IMG/VR virus record: IMGVR_UViG_3300035190_001508
Span: 1-62,350 of that record
Source of the DNA: a virus
Lineage: Duplodnaviria; Caudoviricetes
Length of the DNA stretch: 62,350 nt
Direction: 5' to 3' (one strand)
This document shows, in pieces, positions 44,241 through 51,745 of the stretch. The notes beneath the pieces are model-generated. The model saw nothing but the letters and a program-made list of their open reading frames with translations. It did no database searches and was not told the DNA's origin. A program made the translations under genes and the position numbers. Position 1 is the stretch's first letter. Each line of letters begins with the position of its first letter.

Positions 44241-44285
44241 AAAAAAGCCCCGAGCAACTTAATGCTCGGGGCTTCTTGTTTTTTG
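44241..44285. terminator. Bidirectional intrinsic terminator
   Basis: AAAAAA-GCCCCGAGCA-acttaa-TGCTCGGGGC-TTCTTGTTTTTT between convergent genes. Confidence 0.9.
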
Positions 44286-44299
44286 GGGGGAGCTTGGGG

Positions 44300-44563
44300 T
44301 TAGCGGCTTTCAAGGGTGCACTGCAACCAGCTATTCATATCGGAGACAAGGTCCGGCATGTCTGGGTACAGCTTACCAAAAAGCTCATGGAGTTTGTTTG
44401 AAACGTCTGGGTCAACCGCGGCGCTGGCGCTACGGAAGGTACCAAACTTTGACTTATAGAACACGTACAAGAATCCTTGGTCCTTGTGCAGTTCTACGTT
44501 AATCCGGTCGTGGCTGGTCTTGTCGAAAAACAAATGGCTCACGATACAGGTATCACGAATCAT
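44300..44563 (-). CDS. Early-region hypothetical protein
   Basis: 87 aa, last gene before the terminator, ATGA overlap. Confidence 0.6.
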   Translation of the reverse strand: MIRDTCIVSHLFFDKTSHDRINVELHKDQGFLYVFYKSKFGTFRSASAAVDPDVSNKLHELFGKLYPDMPDLVSDMNSWLQCTLESR

Positions 44564-44643
44564 GGCATTGAGTTAATGATTGAGCAGATGCTGGCGGCGG
44601 TGCCGAAAGCGGCAACGCCCAGTGCAATGTAGAACAAGGTCAT
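44560..44643 (-). CDS. Small membrane peptide (27 aa)
   Basis: MTLFYIALGVAAFGTAASICSIINSMP, coupled to the next gene. Confidence 0.45.
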   Translation of the reverse strand: MTLFYIALGVAAFGTAASICSIINSMP

Positions 44644-44648
44644 TAGCT

Positions 44649-44894
44649 TTATGCTGTTTGAACTTGCGGTGCAAAGAAACTTTGCACCACCTTGCGTACG
44701 ATTCCTGAACTCTTGCCGCGGACTTGTGCAAGGAACCCCTTGACTTCGTCTGGGTTGTCCAAGGTCTTGCTGGTCACGCCACTGCGGAGAAGCACTCCGC
44801 CGTGACGAAGCACGCAATAGGTTCCGTTCCGGCTGTTGTCGAGGTCTGCCCGTTGTTGGGCGTTAAGTCTGGCAATGGTATTAATGTTTTGCAT
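44649..44894 (-). CDS. Early-region hypothetical protein
   Basis: Likely start MQNINT. Confidence 0.55.
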   Translation of the reverse strand: MQNINTIARLNAQQRADLDNSRNGTYCVLRHGGVLLRSGVTSKTLDNPDEVKGFLAQVRGKSSGIVRKVVQSFFAPQVQTA

Positions 44895-45075
44895 AGTAGT
44901 TGTAGTCTTTACTGGGGTTAGTGGGGGGAGTTGGTACATCGTAGTCGGGTTCCGCCATGTTGTCCATGAAAATAAATTCAGGGTCTTGTATGTGGAGCAG
45001 GTCTACTAGGTGGTCCATGCTGGGAACCTGCTGGAGGTCCCCAGTAATTGTTGTGGTCAGGGTGTTTCCGATCAT
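44881..45075 (-). CDS. Early-region hypothetical protein
   Basis: 64 aa with an ATGA overlap. Confidence 0.5.
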   Translation of the reverse strand: MIGNTLTTTITGDLQQVPSMDHLVDLLHIQDPEFIFMDNMAEPDYDVPTPPTNPSKDYNYYAKH

Positions 45076-45308
45076 AGGGTCTCGTTGGTTTCTATTTTAC
45101 CGCTTAAGTACGCGAGTTCCAGTGCTAAATTTAGCGCGTCGTTCCCGCTTATGGCGTGTATGTCTACGCCGAACTTCTGACAGAACGGCATGTTTAGCGG
45201 CTCGGTGTACGCCAGCCAGTTGCGGAGCGTTCGTATTTCTACGGCTCCGTCTGGGCTGTGAACTATTCTAGCCGCCGGATTGGTGGGACTGCTGTAGGTA
45301 ATGTTCAT
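45072..45308 (-). CDS. Early-region hypothetical protein
   Basis: 78 aa with ATGA overlaps at both ends. Confidence 0.6.
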   Translation of the reverse strand: MNITYSSPTNPAARIVHSPDGAVEIRTLRNWLAYTEPLNMPFCQKFGVDIHAISGNDALNLALELAYLSGKIETNETL

Positions 45309-45394
45309 AGGAAGTACGGGGGGTTGGTATCGTCTTTGTTACAGAACAGCACTACGAGCAGAACAAGTAGTACAACGAGCAGGCTGGTTATCAT
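45305..45394 (-). CDS. Small membrane peptide (29 aa)
   Basis: MITSLLVVLLVLLVVLFCNKDDTNPPYFL, with ATGA overlaps at both ends. Confidence 0.55.
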   Translation of the reverse strand: MITSLLVVLLVLLVVLFCNKDDTNPPYFL

Positions 45395-45540
45395 GGCTTT
45401 GGTTTTGGTTTGGGGTTTTTCAATAAGAGCAAGTCCCTGCCAACTAACGGGGGCTCCGGCTTGCGGAGCGCTTTGTTCTTGAGCAGGTACTCGTACGCGG
45501 CGCTTTGCGCGGCCAGTCTTTTTGCAGTGTATTCATTCAT
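45391..45540 (-). CDS. Small basic protein (49 aa)
   Basis: MNEYTAKRLAAQSAAYEYLLKNK...KPKPKP, with ATGA overlaps at both ends. Confidence 0.55.
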   Translation of the reverse strand: MNEYTAKRLAAQSAAYEYLLKNKALRKPEPPLVGRDLLLLKNPKPKPKP

Positions 45541-46103
45541 TGTTTTTTGTAGCGGTTGACTTTTTTAGCTTTGAACACCTCAAGGAGTTTGGGGACCTGC
45601 TCCCAGTCCACCGCAAGAATGCAGTGGTCGTGGAGATCAAGGAACGCGCAGTGGTGCACGCCGTTGGTTTGGAGCCAATGGCCGAGCTGGTCGCTGGCCT
45701 CGGAGGCGTTTATGCTGTAGTTCCAAGGCAGGACCACGGACTTGTGGAACCGCGGGAGTTCGGCCTTGACCCGTGCCGGTCGTGTGTCTGTTGCCGGCAG
45801 TACGCGGCAGGTAATTGCGACTAGGTGTGTTATGGTATTTTGCATGTTGTTTTTTGTTTGTTTTTTGGGTGTGTCCCAGACCGCAATGCTAGGCTCCGCA
45901 ACTGGTTGCGGGGCTTGGACTACGGGTTCTGGAGACGAGATTCTGGAGTTGTGAGATTCTAGCGCGTGCTCGGAGCCCGACGCTAGAACTATTCTTCCGG
46001 TTGGGAAGCACTGGTAAACGGAGCTGGTCGCCCGCCCCGTTATGGGGCAGACGCCAGTCTTGGACGATTCGCCAAGGTACACGGCTATTGTTGCTGGCTT
46101 CAT
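45537..46103 (-). CDS. Early-region hypothetical protein (possible internal start at 45845)
   Basis: 188-aa ORF. An A-rich leader-like stretch precedes the internal MQNTIT. Confidence 0.55.
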   Translation of the reverse strand: MKPATIAVYLGESSKTGVCPITGRATSSVYQCFPTGRIVLASGSEHALESHNSRISSPEPVVQAPQPVAEPSIAVWDTPKKQTKNNMQNTITHLVAITCRVLPATDTRPARVKAELPRFHKSVVLPWNYSINASEASDQLGHWLQTNGVHHCAFLDLHDHCILAVDWEQVPKLLEVFKAKKVNRYKKQ

Positions 46104-50342: not shown

Positions 50343-50367
50343 TATTTTTTGGGCGGATTGGTTGGCT

Positions 50368-50428
50368 TCCGCGACCGCCCGTTTTCACGGGAGGTTTCGG
50401 CCCTTGCCAAGGGCCATCATCAGACGGA
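50368..50428 (-). ncRNA. Type I hammerhead ribozyme HHR-2 (extra U after CUGAUGA)
   Basis: UCCGU CUGAUGA U GGCCC-UUGGCAA-GGGCC GAA ACC-U-CCCG-UGAAAA-CGGG-C-GGU C^GCGGA. Predicted cut 50373/50372. Confidence 0.88.
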
Positions 50429-50743
50429 CTTCTCGAGGCGGGCCTTGACCCGCGAGGCGTTGTGATCGCCGCAGTACAAGGGCACGCCGTACGGCTTGCC
50501 GTCAGCATCGACTGGCGCGTACCACTCGAGGCTGGCGAACTCCTCCTCGTTGGGGAGGTAGAACAGGCTGACCTGCTCGCTGGCGGCTTCCCATTCGCTG
50601 GAGCCCAGCTTTACACCCATGCCGCTGGGACCGCGGAGGCCCAGCTTGGCGATTGCTTCCCATGGCGAAGGCGCGACGGCCCAGCCCAAGTAGTTGACCG
50701 CCAAGTAGGCGGCCCCAGCATTGTTCACGTATGCTTTTTTCAT
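50420..50743 (-). CDS. Early-region hypothetical protein
   Basis: 107 aa, starting 30 nt after the HHR-1 cut. Its stop codon is the UGA of the HHR-2 core. Confidence 0.65.
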   Translation of the reverse strand: MKKAYVNNAGAAYLAVNYLGWAVAPSPWEAIAKLGLRGPSGMGVKLGSSEWEAASEQVSLFYLPNEEEFASLEWYAPVDADGKPYGVPLYCGDHNASRVKARLEKSV

Positions 50744-50768
50744 ATTTAAAAAGCGGAGGGGTTTGGCT

Positions 50769-50828
50769 TCCGCGACCGCCCGTTTTCACGGGAGGTTTCG
50801 GCCCTTGCCAAGGGCCTCATCAGGCGAA
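50769..50828 (-). ncRNA. Type I hammerhead ribozyme HHR-1
   Basis: UUCGC CUGAUGA GGCCC-UUGGCAA-GGGCC GAA ACC-U-CCCG-UGAAAA-CGGG-C-GGU C^GCGGA. Predicted cut 50774/50773. Confidence 0.93.
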
Positions 50829-51494
50829 GTTTGCTTCGAGTTTCCAGAAGTGCTCGATGACCTCCTGCGGCACGCGCTTGCGCTTGCCGTCTTCCCCGTC
50901 GTCGAGGTAGCCGTTGTGCTCCGCGAACGCCAGCGAGCCAGCGAAGTCGCCGTGCGAAATGTCGGCGTACAGCGTATCGCCGTCGCGCTCGAGTTCGAGG
51001 GTGAACCCCTTGAACTTGTGCACCTCTTTTTTCGGCGGTGGCGTCGCCGCGGCAATGAACGCCGCGTCGCTGGCGTCCTTGGCCTTTGCGGCCTCGAATG
51101 CACGGGCGTGTTCGAGGTCTTCCAAGGCGGCAAGCTTGCGGCGTTCGAGCTCCGCTTCGAGTGCTTGCTCGAATGTGACGAACAGGCCGTGGTCGAACGC
51201 GTGGCCTTGCGGGTTCCGGCCGTCCAAGCGGCCGTGGCCAGTGTCGCAGTCGAGGACCGCTATGCTGTCCTGCTTGAGCACCACCGCGAGGTTGTGCGCG
51301 TGCCAGCCGTCCGAAGGGGCAAACCCGACGACCACCAAGGTGGGCTGGGGTTGGCCTTCCCACTCGCCGTTGTGCAGGATGCTGGCGTGGGACTCGAAGC
51401 CCGTTGCGGCGAGTGCTTCGGCGGCAACACCGCGGCTGATCTCTTCACCCGTTGCTTCAACAAGCAACCCAATATTCAATTCGTATTCTTTCAT
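50820..51494 (-). CDS. First early gene: SAM-lyase-like N-terminal domain plus an unknown C-terminal domain
   Basis: Start MKEYELNIGL. NGEWEGQPQPTLVV and LAVVLKQDSIAV resemble phage SAM-lyase motifs. Its stop codon is the UGA of the HHR-1 core. Confidence 0.45.
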   Translation of the reverse strand: MKEYELNIGLLVEATGEEISRGVAAEALAATGFESHASILHNGEWEGQPQPTLVVVGFAPSDGWHAHNLAVVLKQDSIAVLDCDTGHGRLDGRNPQGHAFDHGLFVTFEQALEAELERRKLAALEDLEHARAFEAAKAKDASDAAFIAAATPPPKKEVHKFKGFTLELERDGDTLYADISHGDFAGSLAFAEHNGYLDDGEDGKRKRVPQEVIEHFWKLEANFA

Positions 51495-51498
51495 GTTT

Positions 51499-51583
51499 GC
51501 GTGCCCTCTGCATTGCTGGACTTGGGACCAGTACGCGGCGGCCCACACCTTGTGGGCTTGTTCCGCGCAGTTGCATTGCACGC
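51499..51583 (-). ncRNA. Twister ribozyme, P1 type
   Basis: P1 GCGUG/CACGC; C^AA; P2 UGCA/UGCA; T2 ACU/AGU; P3 GCGCGG/CCGCGU with an inserted GCCCAC/GUGGGC hairpin; P4 CUGG-UCCCAAGU-CCAG; GCAGAGGG supplying T1. Predicted cut 51578/51577. Confidence 0.85.
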
Positions 51584-51717
51584 GCCCCACTACTTCGTGG
51601 GGCAATTTCGGGGGCTGGGAAAGAACTAGGTCAGCCGCTCTTGGGTGTACCGCGCTGGTCCGTTAAGACCACCGCGGTTGCCCCGCTGGCAGGCCGTCAG
51701 TTGCTGACGACGAAACC

Positions 51718-51745
51718 AAGGTAGCAAAAGCCTCGAACTTGGCAA
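51718..51745 (-). promoter_or_regulatory. Candidate early promoter for the ribozyme-punctuated operon
   Basis: TTGCCA-N16-TACCTT with an A-rich upstream element. Transcript start would be near 51711. Confidence 0.5.

Follow-up and report, generated by a model that had tools for sequence, protein, structure and literature searches.

Twister and hammerhead ribozymes at the gene boundaries of a phage operon: a candidate system for host-independent processing of a polycistronic RNA

Introduction

How might a phage divide one long transcript into separate mRNAs without a host nuclease? In phages T7 and T3 the host RNase III cuts the early polycistronic transcript between cistrons, giving discrete mRNAs with structured ends; this protein enzyme acts on long hairpins and leaves 5'-phosphate and 3'-OH ends. 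The question of an RNA-only counterpart is raised by the DNA analysed here, the genome of an uncultured phage. The window, meaning the whole stretch of 62,350 bp, is a complete viral genome that is apparently free and not a prophage. On its minus strand a twister ribozyme and seven hammerhead ribozymes punctuate a string of genes, and the arrangement is best read as a means of cutting a polycistronic transcript independently of the host. Judging from sequence, we give a probability of about 0.72 to the full form of that reading, in which one ~7.5 kb RNA cuts itself at eight places independently of the host and so insulates blocks of genes. What the analysis demonstrates beneath it is that the elements exist, how they fold and are arranged, that they are conserved, and that their products have the potential to form a hairpin.

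A candidate transcription unit on the minus strand

The features of the unit, in the order of its transcription, are:

~51.7 kb to 44.24 kb, minus strand: candidate transcription unit, an RNA of ~7.5 kb if single
51797..51825, minus strand: second promoter-like site, further upstream, TTGAAA-17 nt-TACACT (consensus scan)
51718..51745, minus strand: promoter-like site TTGCCA-16 nt-TACCTT, read from the sequence, predicted start near 51711
51579..51711, minus strand: structured leader of ~133 nt, predicted to be released by twister cleavage, aligning with relatives L008, L010 and L018
51499..51583, minus strand: twister ribozyme, type P1 (RF03160), predicted cut 51578/51577
50820..51494, minus strand: segment 1, gene g1 (224 aa), whose TGA stop is U4-G5-A6 of hammerhead HH1
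47107..50743, minus strand: segments 2-7, with g2, g3-g5, g6-g7, g8-g12, g13-g14 and g15 respectively (ORF calls)
44300..47017, minus strand: distal segment 8 of ~2.8 kb, with g16-g23 and two likely small hydrophobic peptide ORFs
44242..44277, minus strand: intrinsic terminator, strong and bidirectional, with a stem of 15 pairs and a U run after it

An earlier note, made from the sequence alone, had drawn a single apparent unit between a promoter and a terminator. The part of this that sequence can test holds up: the genes form a compact coding-strand string ended by the terminator, and no minus-strand terminator-like site lies inside the unit, the strong one being at its end. As for the two ends, the terminator stands (it is common to the unit and to a converging 4378-aa ORF), and the promoter is only consensus-like. 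The site at 51718-51745 is absent from the calls of a consensus promoter scan; its position is conserved, L010 and L018 carrying GTGACA-16-TACATT/TATGGT with the same spacing at the same place. The scan called 3 sites against 2.7 expected, and the site further upstream is weak on its own, its position again being kept in L010 and L018. Internal promoters may also be present within the unit. The terminator is, separately, the source of weak leader-like Rfam matches.

The leader has no Rfam match. Its 2-3 hairpins keep their pairing despite differing sequences in the alignment with L008, L010 and L018, and it contains an invariant single-stranded CUUUCCCAGYCCCCGA. The gene that follows, g1, has homologues in the same three relatives at 66-86% identity. 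The proteins of segments 2-7 are all small (48-141 aa), and the six that were scanned gave no informative protein family, only one weak PHROG match of unknown function. No Shine-Dalgarno site was found before any of 22 phage genes (0/22).

Ribozymes at the gene boundaries

The earlier note had placed seven hammerheads with a full core on this strand. The pattern CTGAYGA..GAAAC..GTCGCGGAAGCC finds exactly these, seven matches that are all on the minus strand, and none in 100 shuffles (0 expected by chance). The elements are of type I, 53-63 nt long, and each of the seven carries the core C3 U4 G5 A6 Y7 G8 A9, G12 A13 A14, A15.1/U16.1 and C17. They are listed below with predicted cut positions and bit scores from our own covariance model:

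50752..50829, minus strand: HH1 with tail hairpin, pattern 50823-50765, cut 50774/50773, 87.4 bits
50352..50429, minus strand: HH2, pattern 50423-50364, cut 50373/50372, 91.1 bits
49407..49486, minus strand: HH3, pattern 49480-49419, cut 49428/49427, 84.4 bits
48908..48980, minus strand: HH4, pattern 48974-48921, cut 48930/48929, 76.7 bits
47784..47861, minus strand: HH5, pattern 47855-47796, cut 47805/47804, 100.6 bits
47262..47332, minus strand: HH6, pattern 47326-47274, cut 47283/47282, 83.8 bits
47028..47108, minus strand: HH7, pattern 47102-47040, cut 47049/47048, 92.9 bits

When recomputed, all eight cut sites, the twister's included, and the resulting fragments of 804, 401, 945, 498, 1125, 522, 234 and about 2808 nt agreed with those proposed before. 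In an unfiltered covariance scan of 44000-52600 the seven copies scored 76.7-100.6 bits and the next best hit 9.8; across the whole genome the model finds only these seven, and a permissive Rfam scan adds no ribozyme, in line with the claim that none lies elsewhere. That whole-genome scan otherwise returned only a tRNA and a chance miRNA match.

As the earlier note had it, stems II and III vary between copies and remain paired. Stem III takes four unrelated sequences, each able to pair, and in stem II a C-G pair is replaced by U-A. Stem I is CCGC/GCGG, only 4 bp long, and together with the tail it is invariant in the seven copies and in nearly all copies of the lineage. Among individual copies, HH2 and HH4 have an extra unpaired U after A9, the majority state in the family (57/90 distinct copies), HH3 has one stem II mismatch and an internal loop within its long stem III, and HH4 has a short stem III.

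The twister was likewise found where it had been proposed, ahead of the first gene, as an Rfam twister-P1 match at 51500-51582(-) with 38.1 bits (E 1.3e-5 regionally, 9.4e-5 genome-wide), a score below the Rfam gathering score of 67.2. All its catalytic nucleotides are intact. The twister stands 6 nt ahead of the first gene, the ATG of which (51494) comes 4-5 nt after the last base pair. Of the Rfam models suggested in the earlier note, the twister one matches at a sub-gathering score and the hammerhead one does not match: RF00163 finds nothing in the window with the E limit raised to 10, and none of the eight elements is called at curated thresholds.

All eight elements lie on the coding strand at gene boundaries, as claimed, when judged on the 23 called genes of the unit (g1-g23). 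Hammerheads occupy 7 of the 22 junctions. From g1 to g16 each spacer of at least 73 nt is a hammerhead cassette, and the other junctions, including all those inside segments 2-7, are of at most 24 nt or are 4-nt overlaps. No ribozyme lies in segment 8 (44300..47017). A point against the processing reading is that 15 junctions of the unit lack a ribozyme, so that cleavage is no general requirement for expression.

Conservation in related phages

Four related phages were compared with the window, as the earlier note had suggested, and the same architecture, a twister and then 6-7 hammerheads, recurs in all of them and hence in 5/5 genomes (the window, L008, L010, L018+L012 and L132+L016). In the alignment of 42 distinct hammerhead copies from this lineage, pairing stands at 93.5% and 10/17 pairs show compensatory changes, compared with 24-49% paired in slid controls. 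A wider viral set of 94 distinct copies gives 96.1% paired and 13/17 compensatory, including stem I in 3 copies. For the twister, 98.8% of cells are paired across the five genomes and 11/32 pairs are compensatory (0-1 in slid controls), with the pseudoknots intact. Core nucleotides and covariation alike mark all eight elements as genuine members of two self-cleaving classes.

These results bear on whether the elements might be inactive relics or non-cutting structured spacers, such as 3' stabilisers or protein-binding sites, or whether the region might not be a single unit. The sub-threshold Rfam scores of all eight, the short stem I, the pseudoknot missing from three copies and a promoter that is putative would fit such a view. 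Against it, relics would be expected to decay, and the catalytic nucleotides are all intact in 7/7 hammerheads and the twister, with invariant cores alongside covarying stems; we regard it as very improbable.

Another possibility is that the cassettes are mainly selfish or recombinogenic module boundaries, a repeat of ~80-100 bp that spreads between phage genes and shuffles gene blocks by homologous recombination, self-cleavage being incidental or tolerated. Copies share identical stretches, with the same stem III in HH1, HH2 and HH5 and another in HH4 and HH6. The g13 block stands before g8-g12 in L008, L012 and L016 and after them in the window, and 8 of the 23 genes have no homologue in the examined parts of the relatives. 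Two public RNA-type runs gave only assembled fragments of relatives. In a contig from run X1 a g4-like gene is fused directly to a hammerhead tail. The shared stem I and tail turn up again in 5 bacterial or archaeal MAG contigs as well as in over 114 viral stretches. Yet the compensatory changes that keep stems II and III paired in the 94 distinct copies point to selection on the RNA fold and not on DNA identity, most hammerhead positions are orthologous although the proteins of the related genomes are only 50-86% identical, and every copy lies on the coding strand, in a precise fit between the stop codon of one gene and the start codon of the next. We think this explanation improbable as the main one, and recombination between the repeats could easily be a side effect of a processing role.

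Geometry of the junctions

The upstream stop codon lies inside the hammerhead core in 4/7 copies and 7-8 nt before it in 3/7. The upstream ORF therefore crosses the 5' strand of stem I and in four copies reaches the core, so that translating ribosomes could hinder folding. This raises the alternative that the hammerheads are timing or coupling devices and not constitutive cutters: a ribosome translating or terminating at a stop in or near the core would keep the ribozyme unfolded, and the cut would come only once upstream translation stops. In keeping with this, the stop coincides with U4-G5-A6 in those four window copies and in 25/41 lineage copies, and in the wide family stops fall at +1 in 29/85 copies and at -7 to -9 in 31/85. 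The +1 count, however, is close to the one-third expected from random frames, and it is the tight packing, not the overlap itself, that departs from chance. Loop II also falls into two subfamilies: in four window copies it can form 4-5 bp with the tail; in the other three, HH5-7, it cannot and reaches 2 bp at best (loop II of HH5 is GUAGCA). Without this pairing HH5-7 are possibly slow at cellular Mg2+, which under the same alternative would give graded processing along the operon; Perreault et al. suggest that regulation might act on the slower phage variants (PMC3088659). The elements are nonetheless minimal, with no ligand-binding or sensor-like domain, and the order of transcription favours folding and cutting once the tail emerges. 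Gating of this kind is unlikely, in our estimate, and we continue to prefer constitutive self-cutting.

On the downstream side, the predicted cut lies 29-32 nt from the next AUG in 7/7 cases, and the strand 3' of the cut can refold as a conserved 5'-terminal hairpin. Folding predicts it in all seven window copies, at -5.6 to -6.6 kcal/mol and leaving the AUG region open. The first 4 nt of the downstream product are paired in 26/29 distinct lineage ends versus 112/580 shuffles, and in 57/81 in the wide family versus 275/1620 shuffles.

This hairpin matters for another possibility, that cleavage is followed by ligation: the 5'-OH end would dock into the hammerhead body of its own or another fragment and be rejoined by the reverse reaction or by host RtcB, giving circular or rearranged mRNAs. 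The invariance of stem I and tail would make the ends mutually compatible, and Perreault et al. point out that the type I layout is the one that leaves most of the catalytic structure attached to the cyclic-phosphate end; they also consider that products might be spliced or circular, and did not detect any (PMC3088659). The conserved hairpin would hide the GCGG strand after cleavage and looks like a device against re-docking, and a search of the phage genome for RtcB gave 0 matches. Ligation thus has very little probability in our view.

Proposed mechanism and known systems

In the preferred reading, host-independent self-cutting, the minus strand from ~51.7 to 44.24 kb would be copied, presumably early and as a single ~7.5 kb RNA, which would cut itself in vivo during synthesis. 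The twister would free the ~133-nt structured leader and would itself stay folded at the 5' terminus of the first mRNA. At each of the seven type I hammerheads the cut would fall after GUC, so that the hammerhead body, with a 2',3'-cyclic phosphate, becomes the structured 3' end of the upstream mRNA and the downstream mRNA starts with a 5'-OH. The first four nucleotides of the latter, GCGG (the 3' strand of stem I), would re-pair with CCGC 12-13 nt further on to form the 5'-terminal hairpin, followed by an unstructured A/C-rich stretch and then the AUG. The products would be eight mRNAs with 1, 1, 3, 2, 5, 2, 1 and ~8 genes, each formed without the help of a host RNase and having a standard 5' end and a 3' end that is structured. 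The benefit would presumably be insulation or stability. If so, the array would be a natural counterpart of synthetic insulators such as RiboJ, acting on stability and translation block by block.

The likeness to T7 and T3 is one of function and not of family: intercistronic cuts give discrete mRNAs with structured ends, whereas here the RNA itself would cut, leaving 5'-OH and 2',3'-cyclic phosphate ends independently of the host. In bacteria, twister and hammerhead ribozymes reportedly lie within a few kb of each other, often near phage-like genes (Roth et al., 2014), and the 'RAGATH' approach of Weinberg et al. in 2015 is likewise said to have placed twisters near hammerheads, often by phage-like genes. 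Compared with such neighbours, the two classes here hold conserved separate places, the twister only at the head and the hammerheads only between genes. This order fits the geometry of the cuts, as the twister body goes to the downstream RNA and the hammerhead body to the upstream RNA.

The earlier note had left open whether such an array was new. The ordered twister-hammerhead array is seen here, and the processing idea is not new in kind. Clustered phage hammerheads were described by Perreault et al. (2011; PMC3088659), who found prophage genes or blocks of genes bordered by several hammerheads (examples being Agrobacterium tumefaciens ardA, Clostridium scindens and Azorhizobium caulinodans), proposed that long phage transcripts are processed into operon- or gene-length mRNAs, and reported that three tandem arrangements cleave in vitro, with polycistronic constructs of ~2 kb. 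A 2019 review restates the idea for hammerhead and twister (PMC6765202). As in those prophage clusters, several same-strand hammerheads here bracket single genes or short blocks of phage origin, and stem I-stem II pseudoknot contacts are common there too (PMC3088659). Set beside those prophages, the present case has seven hammerheads and a twister per unit in an order fixed in five genomes, a free, apparently complete 62 kb viral genome, and a cassette with a conserved post-cleavage 5' hairpin at a fixed distance from the AUG.

RiboJ joins the sTRSV ribozyme to a hairpin of 23 nt, and it increases the amounts of both mRNA and protein (PMC6206723). Both it and the phage cassette have a ribozyme and then a short hairpin, left at the 5' end of the cleaved mRNA just ahead of the translation start, and both would give a standard 5' end whatever sequence precedes. 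RiboJ is an engineered part that precedes an RBS of the SD type; the cassette of the phage is natural, has no SD, is a type I hammerhead and re-uses the 3' strand of stem I for its hairpin. Two viral cases are also close. In haloviruses HF1/HF2 an early polycistronic transcript has its mapped 5' end at most 3 nt from the cut site of HHphage, a hammerhead placed 13 nt before the first ORF; unlike the array, this ribozyme stands alone, has a variant core and belongs to an archaeal virus (PMC3088659). In RNA mycoviruses, where ribozymes are used for translation initiation and the 5' ends were confirmed in vivo, a type I hammerhead likewise fills a short intergenic UTR and cuts upstream of the next start codon (PMC13725137). 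Those are eukaryotic RNA viruses with the cut a few nt before the start, whereas here a DNA phage with bacterial-type translation keeps 29-32 nt between the two.

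Hammerhead and twister ribozymes of the operon

The earlier note held that seven full-core hammerheads, preceded by a twister, lie on the minus strand of a single operon. A pattern combining the hammerhead core with the shared tail matched seven times on this strand of the window and in none of 100 shuffles, confirming the hammerheads (HH1 to HH7, numbered 5' to 3' on the minus strand).

Hammerheads matching the core and shared-tail pattern in the window
50823-50765, minus strand, HH1
50423-50364, minus strand, HH2
49480-49419, minus strand, HH3
48974-48921, minus strand, HH4
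47855-47796, minus strand, HH5
47326-47274, minus strand, HH6
47102-47040, minus strand, HH7

Their topology is that of type I: CCGC, the CUGAYGA core, a stem II hairpin, GAAA, a stem III hairpin, then GUC and GCGG, with the cut before GCGG. Stem I carries both RNA ends, and the other two stems are closed by hairpin loops. CTGAYGA and GAAA are present in 7/7 copies and correspond to C3 U4 G5 A6 N7 G8 A9 and G12 A13 A14 of RF00163 (clan CL00010); GAAAC and GUC are likewise found in 7/7, with C17 at the cleavage site, an H and not a G. Stems II and III had been said to differ between copies while keeping their pairing, and they do so: stem III has four unrelated sequences among the seven copies, every one of which pairs, and in HH3 and HH4 a C-G pair of stem II is replaced by U-A. 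When a covariance model was made from the seven window copies, it recovered precisely these seven in the whole genome, in agreement with the claim that there are no others. An unfiltered search of 44000-52600 scores them at 76.7-100.6 bits, against 9.8 for the match that comes next. Scanned genome-wide with permissive Rfam settings, the sequence gave, beyond the window ribozyme matches, just a tRNA and a chance miRNA match. The eight cut coordinates and eight fragment sizes predicted earlier all follow from the confirmed element positions.

We then used viral relatives to assess pairing across many copies. A full-pattern scan of viral contigs gave 11 stretches, and the model made 45 matches in the window and those loci, referred to here as the lineage. 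Among 42 distinct lineage rows, 93.5% of cells are standard pairs and 10/17 pairs are compensatory; sliding the partners by 1-3 columns lowers pairing to 24-49%. Relaxing the pattern to the same stem I with any tail gave matches in at least 114 viral stretches, referred to here as the wide family; in the 79 loci listed (L019-L097), the model made 102 matches. Here 96.1% of cells pair in 94 distinct rows, with 13/17 pairs compensatory. Of the compensatory pairs, 10 (lineage) and 11 (wide family) belong to stems II and III. Lineage copies share one invariant, 100% paired stem I, and 3/94 wide-family copies have changes on both of its sides, at two covarying positions. The A15.1-U16.1 pair is kept in 40/41 lineage rows and 94/94 wide-family rows.

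The twister ahead of the first gene was also borne out, by an RF03160 match at 51500-51582 on the minus strand and by covariation over five genomes; all four related array-bearing contigs carry a copy. Its conserved nucleotides (the A just 3' of the cleavage site, GUCCCAAG and GAGGG) all fall within the cmscan alignment and are invariant in 5/5 genomes. P1, P2, the long and short stems and the two pseudoknots are paired in 98.8% of 160 cells of the five-genome alignment, both pseudoknots being fully paired and invariant. Compensatory changes affect 11/32 pairs and reflect one deep split, between the window and its four close relatives; the slid controls are 24-44% paired, with 0-1 compensatory pairs.

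Rfam scores and class membership

At gathering thresholds Rfam called a tRNA alone in the whole genome and none of the eight ribozymes, and membership is therefore argued here through core nucleotides and covariation. With the Rfam models proposed earlier as a check, twister-P1 was found below threshold (38.1 bits, E 1.3e-5 with permissive filters, against a gathering threshold of 67.2), as it was in the relatives (44.5-45.1 bits). The hammerheads matched weakly at E up to 10, to RAGATH-1-hammerhead (24.6 bits, threshold 56.3) and Hammerhead_3 (18 and 17.7 bits, threshold 48.5), and RF00163 had no match to the window at that limit. The RAGATH approach is reportedly founded on the proximity of twister and hammerhead ribozymes. 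We attribute the low scores to how the models were built and not to the loss of any core feature, given stem I, which is short and open, an extra U left unpaired after A9 and a hairpin of 25-27 nt inserted in the long stem of the twister. The unpaired U is the majority state of the family, in 57/90 distinct copies.

An unlikely alternative is that the elements are inactive. The short stem I and the three copies without an evident tertiary contact count against processing by these RNAs; on the other side stand the complete cores and the compensatory changes. Judged from sequence, we give a probability of roughly 0.9 to the eight being functional members of their classes, each with an Rfam score lowered by model construction.

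Layout of the operon and its ends

On the minus strand the order is twister, g1, HH1, g2, HH2, g3-g5, HH3, g6-g7, HH4, g8-g12, HH5, g13-g14, HH6, g15, HH7, g16-g23 and the terminator, where g1-g23 are the operon genes in order of transcription. All eight ribozymes thus lie at gene boundaries, as had been claimed, with the limit that the hammerheads occupy 7/22 gene junctions. Within the first 16 genes every spacer of at least 73 nt is a hammerhead cassette (the hammerhead and its 3' tail hairpin), and the other junctions are at most 24 nt long or overlap by 4 nt (ATGA type). By this spacing the ribozyme-bounded blocks look like translationally coupled units. AT skew is negative over the operon, as in other minus-strand gene regions and opposite to plus-strand regions, supporting minus-strand coding. 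The operon proteins are small, and the 10 that were scanned gave two weak matches, to PHROGs of unknown function; small proteins without a family fit an early host-takeover module, which is no proof of one.

The ends that had been assigned to the operon fared differently. A strong bidirectional terminator does close it, at 44242-44277, and no terminator-like site was found inside the operon on the minus strand. The proposed promoter is absent from the consensus-scan calls, though a similar site occupies the same position in relatives.

Promoter-like sites upstream of the operon
51745 to 51718, minus strand, TTGCCA-16-TACCTT, absent from consensus-scan calls; similar site at the same position in relatives
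51825 to 51797, minus strand, second promoter-like site, position conserved in relatives

A leader of ~133 nt (51579-51711, minus strand) separates the twister from the promoter-like site and is conserved in three of the relatives (L008, L010 and L018). In this leader two or three hairpins keep their pairing with different sequences, and a single-stranded CUUUCCCAGYCCCCGA does not vary. No Rfam family matches the leader, which twister cleavage would release. The distal spacers of 82 and 85 nt (g19-g20 and g22-g23) were considered as further ribozymes and rejected for want of a model match; read by eye, these spacers (45309-45390 and 44564-44648, minus strand) hold ORFs for hydrophobic peptides of ~30 aa, below the 35-codon cut-off.

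Two public sequencing runs share 5-7% of sampled words with the window. Their matches to 44200-51800 are assembled contig pieces (17 from one run, 6 from the other), most of them with 90-99% similarity and so from relatives, and no piece from either run spans the whole operon. The edge of HH7, at 47102, is where two contigs end; since assembly tends to break at repeats, nothing about cleavage, expression or habitat is read from these ends.

Packing of the junctions and translation

The upstream UGA stop forms U4-G5-A6 of the core in 4/7 window copies, and the remaining 3/7 have a UAA immediately next to stem I, 7-8 nt ahead of C3. In 7/7 copies the next AUG stands 29-32 nt beyond the cut. Stops lie inside the core in 25/41 lineage copies; in the wide family they do so in 29/85 and fall at -7 to -9 in 31/85, with the start codon a median of 35 nt downstream. 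The idea that the in-core stop is a special adaptation was toned down, since 29/85 is close to the random-frame expectation. The non-random feature is the tight packing between stop and start and not the share of in-core stops.

GCGG 3' of the cut has alternative partners, either the upstream stem I strand, which gives the active ribozyme, or a CCGC that lies 12-13 nt downstream. Once the 3' product is free, its first 4 nt are paired in 26/29 distinct lineage ends compared to 112/580 shuffles, and in the wide family in 57/81 compared to 275/1620. For the seven window 3' products the computed folding energies are -5.6 to -6.6 kcal/mol, and the AUG region stays open. A less likely rival reading is that cleavage is gated and not constitutive. 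Ribosomes reading into the ribozyme count against the processing model.

Loop pseudoknots are a known hammerhead feature, according to passages of PMC3088659. The potential for pairing between loop II and the tail amounts to 4-5 bp in HH1-4 and just 2 bp in HH5-7. Elsewhere in the family, three different tails each have a complementary loop II (UUGGCUU/AAGCCAA, UGACC/GGUCA and GCGGUU/AACCGC), with matches of 5-8 bp that 10 to 109 of 1000 shuffles equal; the common 4-bp UGGC/GCCA helix alone is not significant. A universal loop II-tail pairing was rejected for HH5-7 and for the subfamily with GUAGCA/GUCGCA loops (10/44 copies).

A Shine-Dalgarno (SD)-like motif precedes 0/22 long ORFs of the whole window, which suggests that the host of this phage may initiate translation without SD pairing. 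In the wide family such a motif follows 53/86 copies. Upstream of the window ORFs the DNA is A/T-rich or, in the operon, CA-rich (CCAACC-type).

Relatives and the wider family

The earlier note had looked to related phage contigs for the same architecture, and all four relatives have it, a twister followed by seven hammerheads (L010 and L018+L012) or six (L008 and L132+L016). Homologues of 15/23 window proteins occur in them at 50-86% identity, and 8 window genes have none in the relatives' examined DNA. Orthologous positions account for most of the hammerheads (those following g1, g5 and g12, the one preceding g8 and those around g15), and in three relatives g13 precedes the g8-g12 block. One contig of a relative, from public sequencing run X1, passes from an HH6-type tail end through 27 other letters, including a start codon, into a g4-like gene (window 47263 and 50048), a sign that the blocks meeting at this hammerhead are ordered differently there.

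An unlikely rival reading takes the elements to be mainly selfish or recombinogenic repeats. Given this turnover of blocks, the repeats are probably recombination points too, as a by-product.

Arrays also occur in unrelated viral contigs, with model matches numbering seven in L068, five in L048 and four in L052; L094 has five pattern matches, three of them model-confirmed. Each of these arrays keeps to one strand (that of L068 lies at 5677-10583, plus strand) and has the same CCGC/GCGG stem I. A permissive Rfam scan of seven loci with 2-7 hammerheads each revealed no twister or other class, in loci that may not reach the operon heads, and produced a single sub-threshold Hammerhead_1 match. The widespread intercistronic type I family (at least 114 viral stretches, arrays of up to seven) sits below Rfam thresholds, and ribozyme-punctuated phage operons are for this reason probably under-counted.

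A scan of bacterial and archaeal genomes found five single cassette copies in unrelated MAG contigs (L133-L137), labelled Acutalibacteraceae, Clostridia, Natrialbaceae (archaeon), Thermoplasmata (archaeon) and Verrucomicrobiota. The copies include the GCGGAAGCC tail, a very wide spread for one stem I and tail. As a clue to the host, five single copies in unrelated MAGs are of no help.

A predicted self-processing transcript

Host-independent self-processing of the operon RNA is supported as a prediction. The RNA would cut itself co-transcriptionally into eight mRNAs with standard, structured ends, and would need no host RNases to do so. Because the twister cut falls close to the ribozyme's 5' end, the twister body would stay on the first mRNA; hammerheads cut near their own 3' ends, so theirs would stay on the upstream mRNAs. 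From this geometry we infer that every product would be structured at both ends and that none would carry the primary 5' triphosphate. The benefit might be insulation, or differential stability or translation. In a further, unlikely reading the ends would serve ligation or the formation of circular RNA; a search for an RtcB gene, which covered the phage genome alone, gave 0 matches.

A stronger version, which we consider unlikely, makes the array an obligatory, protein-free maturation pathway that hides 5' ends, spaces AUGs and is timed by ribosomes, and not optional trimming. All operon mRNAs would then start with a 5'-OH buried in a small structure, with no 5' triphosphate, and would end in a ribozyme body with a cyclic phosphate, save the terminator-ended last one. 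Early messages would be hidden from host 5'-end-dependent decay or end-sensing defences. In a non-SD host the first AUG of each block, ~30 nt from a fresh 5' end, would be translated efficiently, and ribosomes terminating at the in-core stop would set the moment of cutting.

RNase III processes T7 early RNA. Its substrates in T7/T3 are long imperfect intercistronic hairpins, whereas the window junctions are three-way hammerhead folds; the array would thus resemble T7 processing in function and yet not be of that kind. The closer precedent is in prophages. Passages of Perreault et al. 2011 (PMC3088659) describe multiple hammerheads that flank genes or short blocks, suggest that they process long phage transcripts, and report three tandem arrangements that cut constructs of ~2 kb in vitro, one of which cuts in E. 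coli. Like those prophages, the window has several coding-strand ribozymes bracketing phage genes or blocks. A 2019 review (PMC6765202) extends the processing idea to twister and regards what hammerhead and twister ribozymes do in bacteria and phages as still unresolved. The window array would be a large, well-ordered case of an already proposed ribozyme processing, and the principle is not new. The literature searched, with few subscription papers, contains no description of a twister-headed seven-hammerhead array in a phage operon, nor of the tail hairpin switch or the stop-codon overlap; figures or supplements of Perreault 2011 may show clusters of similar size.

With one operon, eight ribozymes, two classes and a conserved order, the window and its four relatives provide a clean natural test of what such ribozymes do, with exact predicted ends and sizes. 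Design rules to test are that the hammerhead body forms the 3' end of the upstream mRNA, that a stem I strand is re-used as the 5' hairpin of the downstream mRNA, that the distance from cut to AUG is fixed, and that the stop codon abuts or enters the core. RiboJ, as portrayed in parts of PMC6206723, may be seen as a design analogue of the window cassette, and natural cassettes could be insulator parts for hosts without Shine-Dalgarno use.

Genome context

The window is a complete IMG/VR virus record of 62,350 bp, with a CheckV completeness of ~99%, and is classed as linear.

Features outside the operon
13547-15685, minus strand, DUF5906 protein
15688-17430, minus strand, family A DNA polymerase
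19850-21178, minus strand, SNF2-type helicase
23530-23600, minus strand, tRNA-Thr, anticodon TGT, 39% GC, the sole Rfam call at curated threshold
26525-28321, plus strand, large terminase
31102-44238, plus strand, 4378-aa ORF, matching DUF7178/phrog_3842 (residues ~2377-2502) and weakly DUF3293, nothing else

Nothing close to the terminase turned up in 50,697 deposited phage records, where its best match is Pseudomonas phage AF (29.7% identity over 31% of length), and the cassette has no blastn match there. The 4378-aa ORF converges on the operon terminator, and its product is possibly a giant virion or injected protein. A low-GC island at 6001-10000 (36-40% GC, compared to 50-57% elsewhere) spans the end of one ORF (4025-7006) and another (7451-9829), and may have been acquired from another source.
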